DNA of 32,000 nt from Cylindrospermopsis raciborskii Cr2010. Lineage in GTDB: Bacteria > Cyanobacteriota > Cyanobacteriia > Cyanobacteriales > Nostocaceae. The stretch is from positions 3,000,001-3,032,000 of the forward strand of contig NZ_CP065936.1 of assembly GCF_003367075.2 (NCBI RefSeq), in the 5' to 3' direction. Shown piece by piece: positions 14,758 to 27,907 of the stretch. The position numbers and the translations under genes are program-made. The notes beneath the pieces were generated by a model. The model searched no databases, was not told the DNA's origin, and saw nothing but the letters and a program-made list of their open reading frames with translations. The stretch's first letter is position 1, and each line of letters opens with the position of its first letter.

Positions 14758-15576
14758 CTATAAACCGGATATATATGGATAGTTAGTGATGAATAATTCC
14801 TTGCCCTTGTCTGCTTTATTCTGTTTGTAGTTATTCATTCCGTATTGCAACTCCCACTCATAAATATGAGCAAAAGAAAAATTGTGTCGCACCTGTTCGC
14901 AATTATCGTAGGTAATTAACCATTTATGTGGGCATTCTTTCATCAGGTTAGCAAAGCGAGAATGGTCAAAACACGTATGCAAATCCCCTTTTTTACCATA
15001 AAGCCTAGATTTAGTATTGGTGAAATAAGGTGGATCTAGAAATATAAATACATCGTCTCCTGGTTCAGTCAGTAGGATACTGTAGTCATAATTGGTCACG
15101 TGGGTATTAGTAAAACAACTATCCAGTGCTGCTAACCGCTCAATAGAAGAGTCTGTAAAGCGACTGTTGAAAGAAGCATTGCTATAACCTCCGCTTTCAA
15201 TTGTCCCCGAAAAGGTAATTCGGTTAAGAACGAAAAATCGGACAGCTCGCTCCAGTGGACTCATTTTACTTGTAGGAGCTAGGGAGAGAGATTTAAACAG
15301 GGCATGTCCATCTGTTGTCTGTTTTTTTACTTTCCACACGGACTCGACTAACTGTGGTAGATTAGTTTTGACCATGGCCCAGAAGTAATATAGTTCGGGG
15401 TTGAGGTCATTGATCCAACAGGGTATATGACGGTGATTTTGCAAGACATAAAAGAATATGGAACCTCCCCCAACAAAGGGTTCGCGGAACTCTTTAAATT
15501 TAGGAGGTAGGTAGTGAGCAATTTGAGAAATTGCCTTTTGTTTACCACCAGGATAACGTAATGGGCTCTTAAGCAT
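14758..15576 (-). CDS. Dam-type (alpha-class, D12) N6-adenine DNA methyltransferase; orphan, with no adjacent endonuclease ORF
   Basis: N-terminal LRYPGGK, AdoMet motif EPFVGGGS, catalytic DPPY (FLDPPYF). No ORF of 60 aa or more on either flank that could be a cognate restriction enzyme. Confidence 0.9.
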   Translation of the reverse strand: MLKSPLRYPGGKQKAISQIAHYLPPKFKEFREPFVGGGSIFFYVLQNHRHIPCWINDLNPELYYFWAMVKTNLPQLVESVWKVKKQTTDGHALFKSLSLAPTSKMSPLERAVRFFVLNRITFSGTIESGGYSNASFNSRFTDSSIERLAALDSCFTNTHVTNYDYSILLTEPGDDVFIFLDPPYFTNTKSRLYGKKGDLHTCFDHSRFANLMKECPHKWLITYDNCEQVRHNFSFAHIYEWELQYGMNNYKQNKADKGKELFITNYPYISGL

Positions 15577-16009
15577 AATGGATTATATTTGAATGCAAGA
15601 GATTATTTTATTAGATGTAGTATGTAATCGCATATAAACTTTTTGTATTCGTTCCAGCGTTTAAGGTTAAAGATCTACCCTAGGATAGATGCGGAGGTAA
15701 CTTCTGATATATTAAAGTGCTTTTGTTTACACTTCATGCAATGATTCTGCCTAAGGCTATAAATTCCTCCCACTAAGTAGAGAGGCACAATTATTTGTAG
15801 GATGGGTTAGGGGTAGCATAACCCATGGGGGTGTTGGGTTTCATGCATCACCATTAAAAAAAGGAAATGTTATTGTGAAATATAACGTACCACAAAATCA
15901 GCGATCGCTCACTAAAAAAATCTACCTAAGCTACCGTGTTTAGATATGGTCGTAAATGCGATCGCATAAAAATTGGTCGTTAGAGTCGTTAGAGGGCTTA
16001 TTTTTGTGA

Positions 16010-16723
16010 TTAGCGTCTTGACAACAAATAAAGACTTATACCAAGTCCAAGTATATTAGGCGAGAAGATGGCAAATACTGGGACATACCTTTGAATAATT
16101 AAAGCGTTAATTATAGCTTCAAAGACCTTTATTGCTCCAATAATTAGCAACGTAAGGCTAAAGCTACTATATTTGATTTTCGGTCGCATATTGATTCCTA
16201 TTGACGACCCAAGTAGGGTGAAAATGACGCAAGATATAGGTAAGTTGAAACGATTAAATAAGGTAATTTTTAGGTTTATTATTTTGTTCATGTCTCCTAG
16301 TTTATTGGAAACTATCAATCTCTGGTAGATCTGGAGAATATTCATTTCTTTATCATCCAATTTTTCTCTATCTAGTTGAAACTGCTGACATATATTAGGC
16401 GAATCAACCACAATTTGTTCAAAAACTTGTTCCTTACCAAAAGATCCATCTTGGTTGATTGTATTTTTAACTCCATTATAAAAATGAAGACATTTACTTT
16501 CTCCATAAATTAGGGCAATTTGAGAGTTTATTATTACTTTTAATCCTTGAGAGTCTGAAATCAGTAAAGTAGGGTTAATCATCTTGTGATCGATCAGTTT
16601 TTCAGCGTAAAACAAGTATTTAATAAACTTATATTTGTTTGATAGATCACCCTTACTTGTTTGTGCCAACTCTTTATATATAATGTCATTATTATCCAAT
16701 CTCTCTCGATTTATATTCATCAC
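16010..16723 (-). pseudogene. LptF/LptG (YjgP/YjgQ) family permease, N-terminally truncated fragment
   Basis: Periplasmic-domain-like middle plus the C-terminal TM block (NLKITLFNRFNLPISCVIFTLLGSSIG...FSPNILGLGISLYLLSRR) aligns with the C-terminal ~2/3 of cyanobacterial LptF/G. The first ~130 aa (3 TM helices) are absent and no upstream ORF supplies them. Visibly more AT-rich than its neighbours. Confidence 0.55.
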
Positions 16724-16890
16724 CGACTCTAAGGCAATAGCAGCTTGATGGTTACTATATGGAACAATGAAATCACTACTAAAAAATAATATTAATACTG
16801 TTTTGTCAATAGGTTTCAGAAAAATTACGTACGTATTTTTTAAAAGTACGTTTTAATACTATTAAAATGAACCAATCAGCAAGCGATCGC

Positions 16891-16919: not shown

Positions 16920-17016
16920 CTATTGGCAAAAACCTATCCGAACTAGTGTGTTAAGATAAAGGTTAGAATGGGAACCTATGGGAAGCGATCGCCTGTAGAA
17001 GCCTCCCCGAACTGCT

Positions 17017-18246
17017 ATGTTGAGTTCAATAAGTACCTTAGATATGATGAATCAAAATAAAACTCCTCCTCGGATCCAATACCTTAAAATCGAAAACTTT
17101 CGGGCATTACGGAAAGTCGAGCTCAAAAACCTTACGCCCCTCACAGTCCTCCTAGGTCCCAATGGTAGCGGTAAATCTACCCTCTTTGATGTCTTTGCTT
17201 TCCTCTCTGAGTGCTTTGAACTAGGACTGCGTCGCGCCTGGGATAAACGTGGTAGAGCTAAAGAACTCAAAACTAGGGGCAGTGATGAGGCGATCGTCAT
17301 TGAGATTCAATATAAAGAACCCGACTATCCCACCATTACCTACCACCTAGCAGTGGACGAACGCAATGGCGCACCCTTTGTCAAGGAAGAATGGCTGAAA
17401 TGGCGACGAGGCAAACATGGTCAACCGTTTAATTTCCTAGACTACAAGGAGGGAAATGGAAAAGCAATCAGTGGTGAGCTACCCGATGAAAAAGACAAAC
17501 GCATTGAAATTCCTCTCAAATCCCCTGACCTGCTAGCTGTTAACGCCCTGGGTCAATTTGCTGAACATCCCCGCGTCGCCGCCCTACGAGACTTCATCAC
17601 CGGTTGGCACGTCTCCTATCTCTCCGCCGACAGTATCCGCACTCAACCTGAAGCAGGCCCCCAAGAACATCTAAACCGCAGCGGAGATAACCTTGCCAAC
17701 GTGATCCAATACTTAAATGAACAACATCGCGATCGCCTAGAAGCAATCTTTACAACTTTGCGGCGGCGAATCCCCCGCATTGAAAGGGTTTTGACTGAGT
17801 CTATGCCCGATGGTCGCCTACTCCTACAAATCAAAGATACTCCTTTTACCCACCCTATAATAGCACGCTTTGCTTCCGATGGCAGCTTAAAAATGCTGGC
17901 CTATTTGGTGCTGCTGCAAGATCCCGCTCCCCCTTCCTTTATTGGCATTGAAGAACCTGAAAACTATCTCCACCCCAGATTGCTCCCCGAACTCGCTGAG
18001 GAGTGCCAGCAGGCAACTGCTAGAACTCAAATGCTTGTCACCACCCACTCTCCCTTCTTCATCAATCAGCTTAAGCCTAAGCAAGTGCGAATTATCTATA
18101 GAGGAACTGATGGCTATACTCGAACACAACTTATTGAGGATATTCCAGGGATCAAGGAATTTATCCAACATGGAGCAAACTTAGGAGATTTGTGGATGGA
18201 GGGACATTTTGAAGTTGGCGATCCTTTAAATCAGGAGGGTATTTAA
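17017..18246 (+). CDS. ABC-type (AAA_21/AAA_15, OLD/SMC-like) ATPase
   Basis: [12 protein letters not shown] followed by Walker [10 protein letters not shown]; Walker B-like [14 protein letters not shown]; H-loop LVTTHSPFF. The true start is more likely the ATG at 17044 or 17047 (MMNQNK...). Confidence 0.85.
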
Positions 18247-18878
18247 TGCCCAAAACAAATAGTTTTTGCATCGAGGTTTTAGTAGAAGAACCTTCTGCTG
18301 AAGAAGCCCTCAAAACCCTTTTGCCAAAATTACTCAAGGGGCGATCTCGCCATAAAATCATTAATTTTGGGAGTAAATCAAAACTACTTAAGTTACTGAG
18401 CCAACGTTTATCTGCCTATGGCGATCGCATCAGCAAAGGAGAAAACGTACGGATTATTGTATTAGTGGATCAAGACAATGATGATTGTAAGAAATTAAAA
18501 AATCAATTAGAGGGAATTGCTCAACAAACAGGATTATCCACCAAATCTAAACCAGATTCTGAAGGAAGATTTGTAGTTCTCAATCGGATTGTGATCAAAG
18601 AACTAGAATCTTGGTTTATTGGAGATACAGAGGCTTTGCGTAAAGCTTTCTCCAGCTTGCCGAGTATATCACCTAAATCAGGAATCTTTCGCAGTCCCGA
18701 TAATGGGGGTAGTTGGGAGGCTCTACATCGGTTCTTAAAAAAACATGGCATTTATAAAAACGGCTACCCCAAAATAGAAGCGGCCCGCCGCATTTCTCTC
18801 CATATGAACCCAGATCAAAATTACTCTCCAAGTTTTAACTGCTTTAAAGCTGGAATAGAAGCCTTCCTATCTCAATAA
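18246..18878 (+). CDS. DUF4276-like small protein with a Toprim-like catalytic residue pattern
   Basis: Start ATG overlaps the ATPase stop (TAATG). First strand IEVLVEEPSAEE (conserved Glu), VLVDQDNDD (DxD), KELESWF. 210 aa. The family assignment is from memory of the DUF4276 pattern and was not searched. Confidence 0.65.
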   Translation: MPKTNSFCIEVLVEEPSAEEALKTLLPKLLKGRSRHKIINFGSKSKLLKLLSQRLSAYGDRISKGENVRIIVLVDQDNDDCKKLKNQLEGIAQQTGLSTKSKPDSEGRFVVLNRIVIKELESWFIGDTEALRKAFSSLPSISPKSGIFRSPDNGGSWEALHRFLKKHGIYKNGYPKIEAARRISLHMNPDQNYSPSFNCFKAGIEAFLSQ

Positions 18879-19138
18879 ACTTTACATTCTGCGTCTTCTG
18901 TTTTGATATCTTCTCCTTTCTCACCAAATATTTTTATATTCTTTATCCGTGGACAATTCTCATAGAAATAAATCCGATCGCACAACACAATCTCCCCAAA
19001 GTTAGATACTGAAATTATGGCAGATTGATTTTTTTCCCCCTTGGGATAATAGGTATTATTTCATCAGAAAGATGGAAAATATTAAGTGCTGAGCAAAACT
19101 TAGGTTAGATTCAATAAACCTAACGAGGGCAAATTCCA

Positions 19139-21200: not shown

Positions 21201-21537
21201 TTACTTAGCTTTACTAGCTTGCTCCATAGCTGCTTGAGATGCAGCAGTGCTACCCATACGAATTTCGGAAGTAAAGGAAGCCATACTAAAACCCCCAAAA
21301 CGTTTAAGTACTCCCACACGCATCCGTAAATTAGGACTAGCAAACCATAGTCGTTCTTCTGAGGACATGGTTTCATACTCTGTGATCAGAGTTAATGCAC
21401 CATCGTTACCCATCTTATAGGTTCCAGCTACTGGCATTTTTTCTGCATAACCCATTTCCCTCAATAGTTTACCTTCACCTGGTTTAAGTAAGTCGGGTAC
21501 AGTGACTAAAACTGTAGAACCTTCATGTTTTGGTTGA
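21201..21537 (-). CDS. cpcS: CpcS/CpeS-type phycobiliprotein (phycocyanobilin) lyase, exon 2
   Basis: The frame is open upstream of the tracked ORF back to the intron. ...[95 protein letters not shown] matches the C-terminal two-thirds of CpcS. The exact 3' splice site is uncertain by multiples of 3 nt (21537 preferred, 21540 possible). Confidence 0.8.
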
Positions 21538-21574
21538 GTCGATGGAGGGTATTATCCTTCGCACCTCTCGTTTA

Positions 21575-21608
21575 AATCTGGGCGTGCGATTTTCACCGCA
21601 CCCAGCTT
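21575..21608 (-). ncRNA. Group II intron domain V
   Basis: AAGCUGGGUGCGGUGAAAAUCGCACGCCCAGAUU aligns position-for-position with the consensus GAGCCGUAUGCGAUGAAAGUCGCACGUACGGUUC: AGC triad, GAAA loop, AC bulge, 34 nt. Confidence 0.85.
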
Positions 21609-21617
21609 CCGATGTTC

Positions 21618-22718
21618 TTAGCTATAGCTTTTGCCTGGAGTGTTAGAAAGGGTAGAGTTTTGACCAGAGTTCACTCGTGGAAACGCCTTATTTATCAGTT
21701 GCTGAATGATTTGTCGGTTTTGTTTTGTTTCCCGATTAAACACCTTGAAAGCTCTGTATTTTATATGGTAGAGGGAAAATCTCGCCCCATCCATGTTGCA
21801 ATGGCGATGGTAATTTCTCCACTCCCCTACGATCAAGCTCAATTTCTGTGCCTTGATAGTAGCTCCATAATTCGAGTTGTTGACTATGTGTTTCACTTTC
21901 TGGCGAAAAGCTTGGAAGTCTTTTAGTCCGGGGACACATCTTAACTTTCCGTTTTTTTGCACTTGAAAATGCCAAGTGAGAAAATCAAACCCATCTGTCG
22001 CTGCAATTAGTTCAGTTTCTTCCGTAGCTAGTTCTATTCCATCTTTTGCCAGGGAGTGACGAATAGTGTCAAGTATTGTTTCTGGGTGATCCTGAGGTTG
22101 GAGGATAATCACTATTTCCCTCCCATACCAAACTAGTTTTCCTATATTTTCTATTTCCTTGAGGAAAATATTAGCCAGTAAGGAGGTTATCAGTTCCGAT
22201 TTCTCCACAGAAAGACATTGTGACCTAATCCCCCGTTTGATTTCTACAGGAGCTATTAGTCTTTTACAAATCGCTCTTGGGTTGATTTTTTCTAGAGATT
22301 TCCCCAAATCAATTTTGATTACTCTTGTTTGATGACCAGGAATTTCCGATAAATATACTTGTAACATTCTTTGTGCATCCTGGGGGGAAAATCCCCGTTT
22401 CCATCCATAACCGTGGAGGTGGAAATTACCTTCATGGGCTGGATCTAAGGTGTATTTAATTACCCACTGCCATACCCGCTGTCTAGTGGTGGAAGATAAA
22501 ACCTCTGTAAGAGAATTTGCTTGTAATACTTGACGAATAGCCAGTAATTGTGCTGACGTAGATTTTAAGATTAGCTTTTGAAGAGACTTAGCCTTGCGCA
22601 GGTCTCCAACTCGAACGGCTTTGTACACTCGTTTTTGCAAGCGGAAGAGATTGCGGCGAAATTGTCGCCAGGGTAACCTCTGCCAAGATTCACTAACATT
22701 TCTGTTGTGTCTAATCAT
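21618..22718 (-). CDS. Group II intron-encoded protein with a degenerate RT domain (maturase-only type)
   Basis: RT-0 block WQRLPWRQFRRNLFRLQKRVYKA...SLQKLILKS...AIRQV; SYGFRPGRS-like HGYGWKRGFS; ISPLLANI-like ITSLLANIFL; YADD position reads VWYGREIVII; GFDFLTWHF; domain X (WRNYHRHCN...). Only 366 aa, with no D/En domain. GGAG ~10 nt before the ATG. Confidence 0.85.
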   Translation of the reverse strand: MIRHNRNVSESWQRLPWRQFRRNLFRLQKRVYKAVRVGDLRKAKSLQKLILKSTSAQLLAIRQVLQANSLTEVLSSTTRQRVWQWVIKYTLDPAHEGNFHLHGYGWKRGFSPQDAQRMLQVYLSEIPGHQTRVIKIDLGKSLEKINPRAICKRLIAPVEIKRGIRSQCLSVEKSELITSLLANIFLKEIENIGKLVWYGREIVIILQPQDHPETILDTIRHSLAKDGIELATEETELIAATDGFDFLTWHFQVQKNGKLRCVPGLKDFQAFRQKVKHIVNNSNYGATIKAQKLSLIVGEWRNYHRHCNMDGARFSLYHIKYRAFKVFNRETKQNRQIIQQLINKAFPRVNSGQNSTLSNTPGKSYS

Positions 22719-23275
22719 ACTTTAACTCCAACTTGTGTATTCTGAACACCTCCGACCAATTACGGTCAGTCCTACCCGAAGTGAGGGAATTTTGCTTCTC
22801 GTCAAGCCTACTTGGGTTTTGACCTTCCCTAGACCCTCAATTCGTTTTTATTCGTTCCCCCGGTTAGATTGTTAGTTTCCTTAGGTGTAGTCAATTCAAC
22901 TACTGGTTTCCCAAGACTCTTACCGCTAATCCAAGAAAATGCGGCGGGAAATATATCCAGTCCAGTCGGGTTTTAATGTTGTGTCCCGCTTATGGGTAAG
23001 TTGCTTTTTTAGACTCTATTTCACCGTAGAAACACCCCATTAGCACCAGTGTCATCCCACAACGGATGTCTGATTGCACCCTGTTCCCAGCTTCACCCTC
23101 CAGTTACCGAGTCTGGTCAGTGTGGGCAGATCGGGAGTCACACCTGAGTCTGGCGGATGGGACTTTCACCCATATCCAACTGAGAGTTCAACCTTCATCT
23201 ACTTGTTTATTACTAGTTGAGGTTGGTGAGGTTATTACGGATTAGTTACCGATGTTGACCCACAACGAATCGCAC

Positions 23276-23511
23276 TCTTGGTCCCATTCCATGGTTCCTT
23301 TCCAGGTGACTCTTGCTCCACAGGAAGCTGCATCGGGAAGAATGGAATACTGTTCACACAGTTTAATTACTTCTGGATGGTCTACTGTGAGCATGTCAAT
23401 TACGATGTCTGATTTACCATCTTCTGACTGTTTAAAGGCTAAATGGTGGCTAGTACGGTGGGAAAACCACTTTCCAGCACTTAATTCGAAAAACTCTTCC
23501 ACATTCATCAA
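23276..23511 (-). CDS. cpcS: CpcS/CpeS-type phycobiliprotein lyase, exon 1
   Basis: [78 protein letters not shown] is the conserved CpcS N-terminus. The tracked ORF reads on into the intron (from the GAG codon completed by the first G of GTGCG) and stops 11 codons after that split codon. Confidence 0.85.
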
Positions 23512-26182: not shown

Positions 26183-27907
26183 ATGAGTTCTGGAAATCCA
26201 TTAGGTTCGGTTATTAGAGGTTCTTTAACCAAGGGGTTAGAGATCAGATTACACTCTGATGTCTCCGTAGAAGATATGCGTGTTGGTAAATTTCTGGTCA
26301 TCCAAGGTGTCCGTTCTCGTTTCTTTTGCATGGTGACCGATGTTGCCCTAGGAACGGCAAATGAACGGATTATAGCCAGTCCTCCCAATTGGGAAGATAC
26401 TTTTTTAAGGGAGGTTTTGGCTGGTAGCAGTACCTATGGTATCGTCACCTTGGCACCAATGCTCATGTTTACACCAGAAGATACGGAGCATACTTTTAAC
26501 GGTAAATCTGCCCAGAGTTCAGCATTTTCTGGGAATGGTTTGGCATCTTTTCAGCCTCAAACCGCAACCACAATGGAACTGCTACCGGTAAAAACCATAC
26601 CTACTCACTTTAGTCAGGTTTACGAAGCTGAGGAATATGATTTTCGCAAAGTTTTTGGATGGGAAGACGATCAGCAGCGCAAAAACTTCTCTATTGGTAA
26701 ACCCTTGGATATGGATGTGCCAGTTTGTATTGACTTAAATCGGTTTGTAGAAAGGAGTAATGGGGTTTTTGGTAAATCTGGAACTGGTAAATCCTTTCTC
26801 ACCCGGTTACTTTTAGCTGGTGTTATCCGTAAAAATGCTGCTGTTAACCTAATTTTTGATATGCACTCCGAATATGGTTGGGAAGCGGTAGCAGAGGGTA
26901 AAGAAGTAAGCACGGTCAAAGGTCTCAAACAACTATTTCCTGACAAGGTAGAAGTTTACACCTTAGATCCGGAAGCGACTAAGCGAAGAGGTGTTAGGGA
27001 CGCACAGGAGCTATATCTCAATTACGAGCAAATAGAAGTAGAAGATCTGAAACTTTGTGCCAATGAGTTAGGAGTTAGTGATGCTTCAATGGATAGTGCT
27101 AGCATTCTATATAAACAGTTAGGTGACCGTTGGATTCCCGAATTGCTGGGAATGACAGGGGATGACATCAAATTGTTTTGCGATGAAAATCCTGGTCATG
27201 TGGGGTCAATTGCAGCTTTGCAGCGCAAACTAATGCGACTTGAGAACCTGAAATATATACGAAACGCACGTAAAGATAACTATATTAAGAAAATAGTGCA
27301 ATCTTTGGAAGCTGGGAAAAATGTGGTGATAGAATTTGGAACACAGTCAAACATGCTATCATATATGCTGGTAACCAACATGATTACCAGACGTATACAT
27401 GATCACTATGTTACCAAAGCGGACAAATTTTTGCACACCAAGAATCCGCTGGATAAGCCAACACCACTAATGATTACAATAGAAGAAGCCCATAGGTTTC
27501 TTGATTCCGCAGTAGTTCAAAGTACCATATTTGGCACCATCGCTAGGGAGTTGAGGAAGTATTTTGTCACCCTTTTGGTGGTTGATCAGCGCCCATCGGG
27601 AATAGATAATGAAATCATGTCCCAGATTGGCACCCGGATTACAGCTTTGCTAAACGACGAAAAGGATATTGAGGCGATTTTTACCGGGGTGTCGGGTGGT
27701 AGTGTCCTACGTTCAGTATTAGCGAAGCTGGACTCTAAGCAGCAAGCCCTAATCCTAGGTCATGCTGTGCCGATGCCTGTAGTAATACGTACTCGGGCAT
27801 ACGATGGAGTGTTTTATAAAGAGATTGGCGATGTAGATTGGCAAGAGATGTCGGATGTAGAGGTTTTTGCTGCTGCCAAGCTGGCTAAAGCAGATTTGGG
27901 TTTTTAG
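26183..27907 (+). CDS. HerA-like (DUF87, FtsK/HerA superfamily) P-loop ATPase
   Basis: N-terminal HAS-barrel-like region (VGKFLVIQGVRSRFFCMVTDV), Walker A GKSGTGKS, Walker B MITIEEAHRFL, LLVVDQRPSGID, ALILGHAVPMP. Confidence 0.8.
   Translation: MSSGNPLGSVIRGSLTKGLEIRLHSDVSVEDMRVGKFLVIQGVRSRFFCMVTDVALGTANERIIASPPNWEDTFLREVLAGSSTYGIVTLAPMLMFTPEDTEHTFNGKSAQSSAFSGNGLASFQPQTATTMELLPVKTIPTHFSQVYEAEEYDFRKVFGWEDDQQRKNFSIGKPLDMDVPVCIDLNRFVERSNGVFGKSGTGKSFLTRLLLAGVIRKNAAVNLIFDMHSEYGWEAVAEGKEVSTVKGLKQLFPDKVEVYTLDPEATKRRGVRDAQELYLNYEQIEVEDLKLCANELGVSDASMDSASILYKQLGDRWIPELLGMTGDDIKLFCDENPGHVGSIAALQRKLMRLENLKYIRNARKDNYIKKIVQSLEAGKNVVIEFGTQSNMLSYMLVTNMITRRIHDHYVTKADKFLHTKNPLDKPTPLMITIEEAHRFLDSAVVQSTIFGTIARELRKYFVTLLVVDQRPSGIDNEIMSQIGTRITALLNDEKDIEAIFTGVSGGSVLRSVLAKLDSKQQALILGHAVPMPVVIRTRAYDGVFYKEIGDVDWQEMSDVEVFAAAKLAKADLGF

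Follow-up and report, generated by a model that had tools for sequence, protein, structure and literature searches.

A stretch of 32,000 nucleotides from the genome of Cylindrospermopsis raciborskii Cr2010 (contig NZ_CP065936.1, positions 3,000,001 to 3,032,000), here called the window, contains two adjacent open reading frames on the forward strand, encoding an ABC-type ATPase (ORF1) and a small DUF4276 protein (ORF2). The original prediction, made from the sequence of the window, had described the pair as a candidate two-gene defence module, and the coordinates, lengths, overlap, and every motif quoted there were reproduced (Table 1). ORF1 has an alternative start at 17044 that gives a product of 400 aa, and the NCBI annotation uses 17017 or 17044 depending on the strain. 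The stop codon of ORF1 and the start codon of ORF2 overlap in the sequence TAATG, in which one base (18246) is common to TAA and ATG, and a GGAGGG lies just 5' of the overlap. The overlap indicates that ORF1 and ORF2 are translationally coupled, as had been proposed. An identical 1-nt overlap between ATPase and DUF4276 genes was found in three related loci (L016, L019, and L024), where the type I restriction-modification (R-M) genes hsdS and hsdR also overlap or abut. ORF1 carries KIENFRAL (residues 24 to 31), the Walker A motif GPNGSGKST (G47 to T55, including K53), a Walker B-like block (residues 308 to 320) with the Walker B/D-loop sequence FIGIEEPE (308 to 315), and the H-loop TTHSP (342 to 346, including H344). 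ORF2 carries IEVLVEEPSAEE (residues 9 to 20), VLVDQDNDD (72 to 80), and ELESWF (119 to 124). This set of motifs is far beyond what chance would give.

We searched both proteins against the profiles of Pfam, PADLOC-DB v2, and NCBIfam. ORF1 matched AAA_21 (E value of 3.5e-27) and AAA_15 (2.8e-20), and ORF2 matched DUF4276 (1.1e-29) over 190 of the 192 profile positions. The top PADLOC-DB v2 matches of both proteins were full length, with ORF1 matching HEC-01A (PDLC04182; E value of 1.3e-161; 536 bits; protein residues 18 to 402 on profile positions 2 to 404 of 406) and ORF2 matching HEC-01B (PDLC04202; E value of 2.5e-67; protein residues 9 to 208 on profile positions 3 to 201 of 204). The matches of ORF1 to AriA, AbiLi, PtuA, GajA, and mad3 were at least 400 bits weaker than that to HEC-01A, and N-terminal matches to RecF, Rad50, and SMC proteins were weak. 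The gene order is also that of HEC-01, with the two genes adjacent on the same strand. The pair is a further member of HEC-01, a candidate system that has already been catalogued. The predicted distinctness from PARIS, AbiL, and OLD holds. However, the accompanying belief that the pairing had no assigned function was mistaken or out of date, as it is already named HEC-01 in PADLOC-DB v2 and representatives have been assayed twice. HEC-01, or "Hma-embedded candidate 01," was defined from Hma-embedded copies and described as an ABC ATPase with a TOPRIM protein whose metal-binding site aligns with that of Burkholderia pseudomallei OLD (Payne et al., bioRxiv 10.1101/2024.01.29.577857). Published work places both DUF4276 and RloB in the Toprim superfamily and identifies MAD4 of the MADS system as a DUF4276 protein (PMC12065111). 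When 42 family members were scanned with Pfam at E values up to 10, no Toprim-clan family besides DUF4276 was found.

The AlphaFold2 model of ORF1 has a mean predicted local distance difference test score (pLDDT) of 70.8. Its top Foldseek matches in the PDB were the OLD nuclease (6p74; E value of 8.5e-13), PtuA of retron I-A, GajA (approximately 4e-10), and Septu PtuA. A sequence-only search of the PDB agreed with these defence ATPase matches, and sequence searches found no close relative of ORF1 or ORF2 among PDB sequences. In 35 relatives from several phyla, the Walker A, Walker B, and H-loop residues do not vary. The profile matches and the nearest structures thus identify ORF1 as the OLD/Gabija/Septu-type ABC ATPase that had been expected. 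The model of ORF2 (pLDDT of 81.8; predicted template modelling score of 0.82) has a beta-alpha-beta-alpha-beta-alpha core with strands at residues 8 to 13, 35 to 40, and 68 to 75; E14/E15 follow the first strand, and D75-x-D77 stand at the end of the third. Conservation was examined across DUF4276 by taking one full-length representative from each of 116 clusters at 50% identity. D75, E121, and W123 are each conserved in 99%, E119 in 97%, D77 in 95%, E14 in 91%, and K44, K85, R114, D127, and D152 in 91 to 95%. The order of acidic residues foreseen for a Toprim protein is intact in ORF2, and the ORF2 model shows the Toprim pattern of a Glu after strand 1 and a DxD after strand 3 in a beta-alpha-beta sandwich.

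ORF2 is 100% identical to a C. raciborskii protein, and the ATPase-DUF4276 pair is present in many Cylindrospermopsis and Raphidiopsis strains. The ATPase is 74 to 77% identical across Cyanobacteria, Chloroflexota, Acidobacteriota, Planctomycetota, and Burkholderiales, with a mean column identity of 81%, and the DUF4276 relatives of ORF2 are 62 to 68% identical. An ATPase approximately 75% identical across phyla makes the subfamily easy to recognize. The wider DUF4276 family comprises 1,172 representatives (one per 50%-identity cluster; E values up to 1e-3). The ratio of nonsynonymous to synonymous substitution rates (dN/dS) among cyanobacterial copies, including that of the window, is 0.05 to 0.15, which points to long-term purifying selection on the pair. 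The G+C content of ORF1 is 47%, compared to 41% for the window. The HEC-01-type subfamily is highly conserved and horizontally spread.

Relatives in type I R-M operons and the captured cassette

In the loci of the closest proteins, the genes lie on one strand in the order hsdM, sometimes extra genes, hsdS, ATPase, DUF4276, and hsdR, often with overlapping stops and starts (4, 1, and 1 nt in L024). The hsdR gene is directly 3' of the pair in 9 of 11 distinct close loci from genomes and assemblies. The closest relatives of all (L019 to L023) share 82% nucleotide identity with the window pair and are taken to be cyanobacterial because their loci are HIP1-rich; the mobile or R-M contexts of the closest relatives include integrases. 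The first impression that nearly all relatives are R-M embedded did not hold up in 80 metagenome loci, a sample with less bias, in which relatives with 56% identity or more were counted as close. The ATPase gene was directly 5' of the DUF4276 gene in 78 of these loci, and HsdR was directly 3' in 10 of 19 close loci, compared to 4 of 49 distant ones. About half of the close subfamily is R-M embedded, and stand-alone HEC-01 pairs are common. In 22 long loci without HsdR, the immediate neighbours were mostly housekeeping genes, with only scattered defence matches, and three further stand-alone pairs (L005, L007, and L008) lie among plsX/leuA, ileS/lspA, and acyl-CoA genes. The frequency of stand-alone pairs in other phyla argues that retention of the pair does not depend on an R-M partner.

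Among the loci L001 to L024, which represent three clades only, ORF2 identity tracks HsdR identity (Spearman coefficient of 0.90), and ORF1 identity shows no such tracking (0.34). The cyanobacterial ATPase is nearest to the Chloroflexota/Planctomycetota clade, and its DUF4276 and HsdR partners are nearest to the betaproteobacterial clade. A single recombination breakpoint could be the source of this pattern.

The nucleotide homology between the window and its R-M-embedded closest relatives, as delimited by blastn, covers the two genes and a short spacer and extends at its 3' end to the first bases of hsdR in L019. The window pair has no hsdS on its 5' flank and no hsdR on its 3' flank, and tblastn searches of the window and its flanks at E values up to 20 returned no hsdM, hsdS, or hsdR genes or remnants, with matches at chance level only. 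Given these limits of homology and the lack of hsd remnants, only the two-gene cassette was captured, and it was placed between lptF/G and a gene for a hemerythrin-domain protein. A scan for promoters and terminators gave results at the level of shuffled controls. A 12-nt direct near-repeat, TAGAAGCCTCCC at 16996 to 17007 (5' of ORF1) and TAGAAGCCTTCC at 18856 to 18867 (near the end of ORF2), lies close to the two borders of the cassette and was judged to be probably due to chance, the second copy lying within conserved coding sequence.

Two further arrangements were observed around relatives of the pair. A DUF6978 gene with a DUF1828/DUF1829 gene recurs directly 5' of ATPase-DUF4276 in several loci linked to type I R-M and may be another embedded module. 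On plasmid pSYSM of Synechocystis PCC 6803 (L119, 25994 to 27735), a distant AAA ATPase-DUF4276 pair (SGL_RS00110/00115) with 31% identity to ORF2 adjoins genes for a cysteine desulfurase, a phosphorothioation-associated methyltransferase, HNH endonucleases, and toxin-antitoxin systems; this pair could be a tractable model.

Strain variation and surroundings

The locus is fixed in the species, being at the same position in all Cylindrospermopsis assemblies seen, and its content varies. In the haplotype of the window, which is shared by three other assemblies (L029, L120, and L124), both genes of the pair are whole, lptF/G retains only residues 120 to 382, and the neighbouring methyltransferase gene lacks its restriction endonuclease gene. 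Several assemblies (L029 and L124) carry undisrupted ORFs with 100% nucleotide identity to those of the window. Many other strains, among them six of the assemblies compared, share a 296-nt deletion in ORF2 that leaves a frameshifted product of 98 aa. Five of the six (L038, L121, L123, L125, and L032) have a full-length lptF/G and an extra 1.6 kb of repeat-rich small ORFs, and some of the strains with the deletion retain the RE_HaeIII-family gene that overlaps the methyltransferase gene. The sixth (L122) has additional frameshifts, and its ATPase is down to 367 aa. In L126, a second, independent deletion has removed the 3' end of ORF1, the junction, and the N-terminal half of ORF2. The nuclease gene has thus been lost at least twice, and the pair is dispensable and may be decaying. 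Preferential inactivation of ORF2 was considered and rejected, since the 98-aa alleles represent one ancestral deletion and two independent events are too few statistically.

Table 1. Features of the window and of the loci compared with it (window positions unless a locus is named)
Feature	Position	Strand	Remarks
D12-class N6-adenine DNA methyltransferase gene	14758-15576	-	Orphaned in the window strain
lptF/G remnant	16013-16801	-	Residues 120-382 of 382; approximately 1,966 nt missing up to the cassette compared to CP073250
ORF1, HEC-01A-type ABC ATPase (AAA_21/AAA_15)	17017-18246	+	409 aa
Captured cassette	17060-18892	+	Nucleotide homology (82%) to R-M-embedded closest relatives (blastn)
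Second, independent deletion	18231-18599	+	Approximately 369 nt; L126
TAATG stop/start overlap of ORF1 and ORF2	18244-18248	+	1 nt shared
ORF2, HEC-01B, DUF4276 protein, predicted Toprim-like metal-dependent nuclease	18246-18878	+	210 aa
296-nt deletion in ORF2	18508-18803	+	L032, L038, L121, L122, L123, L125
DUF6978 + DUF1828/DUF1829 gene pair	L010, 5512-6719; L012, 6906-8116; L016-L018		Directly 5' of ATPase-DUF4276

The sequence that is missing between the lptF/G remnant and the cassette (L038, 8397 to 10362) comprises the 5' end of lptF/G and the repeat-rich small ORFs, which encode Ser/Gly/Arg-rich, secreted-looking peptides. In other strains, a gene for a RE_HaeIII-family endonuclease (296 aa) overlaps the start of the methyltransferase gene (L038, 11325 to 13026; L123; L127), and the window has 316 unrelated nucleotides (15587 to 15902) in its place. 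The D12 methyltransferase was therefore rejected as a partner of the pair, since it has its own RE_HaeIII-family partner elsewhere. The differences among strains in lptF/G, the endonuclease gene, and ORF2 confirm the predicted variable patch beside an orphan methyltransferase and a gene remnant. Farther along the window, a gene for a HerA-type ATPase (HAS-barrel and DUF87; 26183 to 27907, forward strand) gave weak matches to the PADLOC HerA and mad8 models. A cpeS-like gene on the reverse strand (21201 to 23511) is split by a group II intron into an N-terminal half (23242 to 23511) and a C-terminal half (21201 to 21464). The intron contains a reverse transcriptase/maturase ORF (21618 to 22718; RVT_N and GIIM only) and an Rfam Intron_gpII domain V/VI match (21533 to 21610; 48.5 bits).

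Proposed function and alternatives

With moderate confidence, we regard the pair as probably a HEC-01 module of a sensor ATPase and a Toprim nuclease that was captured alone from a type I R-M operon and serves in abortive or back-up defence. The abortive or back-up part of this proposal is based on analogy with PARIS, PrrC, OLD, and Gabija. By that analogy, the ATPase would oligomerize into an ATP-dependent sensor that either holds the Toprim protein or licenses it, and the complex would be switched on by a phage cue, for which an anti-restriction protein or an abnormal state of nucleic acid or of the R-M system is plausible. The Mg2+-dependent Toprim nuclease would then cut nucleic acid, either tRNA or other RNA as in PARIS or DNA as in OLD and Gabija, and this cutting would confer abortive or back-up immunity. 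From these parallels, we infer complex formation, the trigger, the substrate, and a defence phenotype in C. raciborskii. The proposal draws support from the family matches, the defence ATPases nearest in structure to ORF1, the conserved motifs of both proteins, the near-constant linkage of the two genes, the R-M embedding of relatives, the purifying selection, and the need for mad3 and mad4 in MADS defence. In 2026, a HEC-01 representative was reported to protect E. coli B against at least one of T4, T5, and T7 (PMC12881386).

Several observations weigh against this proposal. Another representative, assayed in 2024, gave no protection against a subset of the BASEL phages and classic coliphages (bioRxiv 10.1101/2024.01.29.577857), and the positive assay was reported without a magnitude and without mutant controls for HEC-01 (PMC12881386). 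ORF2 was deleted twice independently in sister strains, in which the ATPase gene is usually open. The neighbours of the pair are housekeeping genes (priA, a sigma factor, cytochrome c6, MAPEG, and psbEFLJ) rather than a defence island, and the defence-like ones are limited to the D12 methyltransferase and the weak HerA match. The Toprim-like nature of ORF2 had been part of the original prediction; the DUF4276 match and the motif order uphold it, whereas structural comparison did not add to it. Residues 103 to 117 of the ORF2 model are of low confidence, a Foldseek search of the PDB gave no significant match (best E value of 0.06; 0.29 for AriB, 8v46_D), and the best viral match in BFVD, an RloB-like protein, was not significant either (E value of 0.035; TM score of 0.45). 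A profile search of PDB sequences with ORF2 found no match. With these null results, the Toprim fold rests on motifs, topology, and the literature. Three rival explanations of the pair have some support, but less than the one proposed here.

The first is that the pair is a relic, the passenger of a type I R-M system that was lost or never acquired, functionless in Cylindrospermopsis and too young to have decayed. The missing hsd genes, the two ORF2 deletions with the further frameshifts in sister strains, and the strain-specific deletions in the flanks (the lptF/G 5' end and the endonuclease gene) are all compatible with such a passenger. However, both ORFs are intact and identical in several assemblies, and all of the catalytic residues are kept. 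Against embedded relatives, the dN/dS values of 0.09 and 0.14 show no increase, with the caveats that dS is almost saturated and that the period since detachment cannot be separated out. Stand-alone pairs among housekeeping genes are, moreover, common in other phyla. We consider a relic rather unlikely.

The tracking of HsdR identity by ORF2 allows a more specific version of the defence hypothesis, in which the cassette is a detachable "guard" of type I restriction enzymes and the ATPase senses the inactivation of the R-M system by phage anti-restriction proteins. Because ORF2 identity and not ORF1 identity follows HsdR, the DUF4276 nuclease would have coevolved with HsdR and may contact it. 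Such a guard is an unlikely reading. If it is correct, the Cylindrospermopsis copy would show that a guard can be retained and can act alone, and the repeated loss of the nuclease would reflect its autoimmune cost after the R-M partner was gone.

The same tracking, together with the co-operonic hsdM and hsdS genes of relatives, would also suit a restriction arm like that of MADS, in which the pair is a methylation-sensitive DNA nuclease working with a neighbouring methyltransferase (HsdM/HsdS, or here the D12 enzyme 1.4 kb away). In MADS, mad3 and mad4 are required for defence, and mad5 can be deleted only together with mad2 or mad3. This explanation is very unlikely. ORF1 reaches 117 bits, far short of the 420 that NCBIfam sets as the cut-off for MAD3; mad1, mad2, and mad5 to mad8 are not adjacent to the pair; and many relatives have no methyltransferase nearby. 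The D12 methyltransferase gene lies on the opposite strand beyond lptF/G and, in other strains, has an endonuclease partner of its own. A methylation-sensitive nuclease without protection would be expected to kill its host, but the window carries an intact pair.

Least probable of all is a housekeeping role in DNA repair or maintenance, for which the union of an ABC ATPase with a Toprim protein (as also in RecF-RecR and SMC-like systems), the unusually high conservation, the low dN/dS, the housekeeping neighbours at many loci, and the weak RecF/Rad50/SMC matches might speak, but which fits poorly with a patchy, horizontally transferred distribution (including the divergent G+C content of ORF1 and relatives in mobile or R-M contexts with integrases), repeated embedding in R-M operons, an effector dispensable within one species, and nearest structures that are defence ATPases and not RecF.

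Taken alone, the window copy amounts to routine annotation of a candidate HEC-01 defence pair in a cyanobacterium that forms blooms and produces toxins. The clean capture of the cassette provides a natural test of whether HEC-01 is autonomous or only a back-up to R-M, and the two independent deletions of the nuclease gene in sister strains are natural knockouts that can be compared for susceptibility to cyanophages. A clear phenotype and mechanism of HEC-01 would add one ABC-ATPase/Toprim system to the group of PARIS, OLD, and Gabija, and the mechanism might generalize the PrrC/PARIS logic of anti-restriction sensing.

Comparison with known systems

The window pair has the two-gene layout of HEC-01, with the ABC ATPase gene (HEC-01A) followed by the gene for the TOPRIM-like DUF4276 protein (HEC-01B). 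HEC-01 was defined from Hma-embedded copies, whereas the subfamily of the window is found in type I R-M operons or alone, as in the window itself. MAD3 and MAD4 of MADS are likewise an AAA_15/21 ABC ATPase and a DUF4276 protein, and MADS3-4 and AbiL are among the ABC-ATPase-plus-TOPRIM systems listed in a paper on PARIS (PMC11464382). MADS differs in that ORF1 scores 117.5 bits against the MAD3 equivalog model NF047739 (cut-off of 420) and in that the other six mad genes are not present. A PADLOC scan of the neighbours for the mandatory mad6 to mad8 genes gave only the weak mad8-like match on the HerA gene 7 kb off.

Among solved structures, the closest ATPase folds are those of OLD and GajA, which also combine an ABC ATPase with Toprim chemistry. 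In both, the ATPase and Toprim domains are fused, and Gabija also has the GajB helicase. In contrast, the window encodes the two proteins by separate genes, and no UvrD-like helicase was found in the neighbourhood. Septu is more distant, since PtuB is an HNH nuclease and ORF2 is a DUF4276 protein, and the PtuA matches of ORF1 are weak. AbiL and RloA-RloB resemble the pair in having an AAA_21 ATPase with a small partner of the Toprim superfamily, and RloB-type genes have been linked to type I R-M loci (PMC12065111). However, ORF2 matched neither Pfam RloB (PF13707) nor PADLOC AbiLii, and the AbiLi match of ORF1 was weak and partial (7e-23).

Two systems offer parallels to the genomic setting. 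PrrC is encoded inside the type I R-M operon EcoprrI (hsdMSR) and is likewise a suicide nuclease based on an ABC ATPase; the R-M enzyme keeps it latent until the phage anti-restriction peptide Stp releases it. Unlike the window pair, PrrC is one polypeptide, with its anticodon-nuclease domain at the C terminus and without a Toprim domain, and the sequence relation is limited to the ABC fold. In PARIS, AriA and AriB are likewise an ABC ATPase sensor and a Toprim effector encoded by adjacent genes. AriB is a 35-kDa DUF4435 Toprim protein, whereas ORF2 is a 24-kDa DUF4276 protein with no DUF4435 or AriB match in the Pfam or PADLOC models, and the AriA match of ORF1 is at the generic AAA_21 level (2.5e-28; 98 and 79 bits), compared to 536 bits for HEC-01A. 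PARIS, PrrC, and Gabija are all ABC-ATPase systems that are triggered by anti-restriction proteins, and in the case of PARIS this trigger fits a system that, like the relatives of the window pair, travels in R-M operons.

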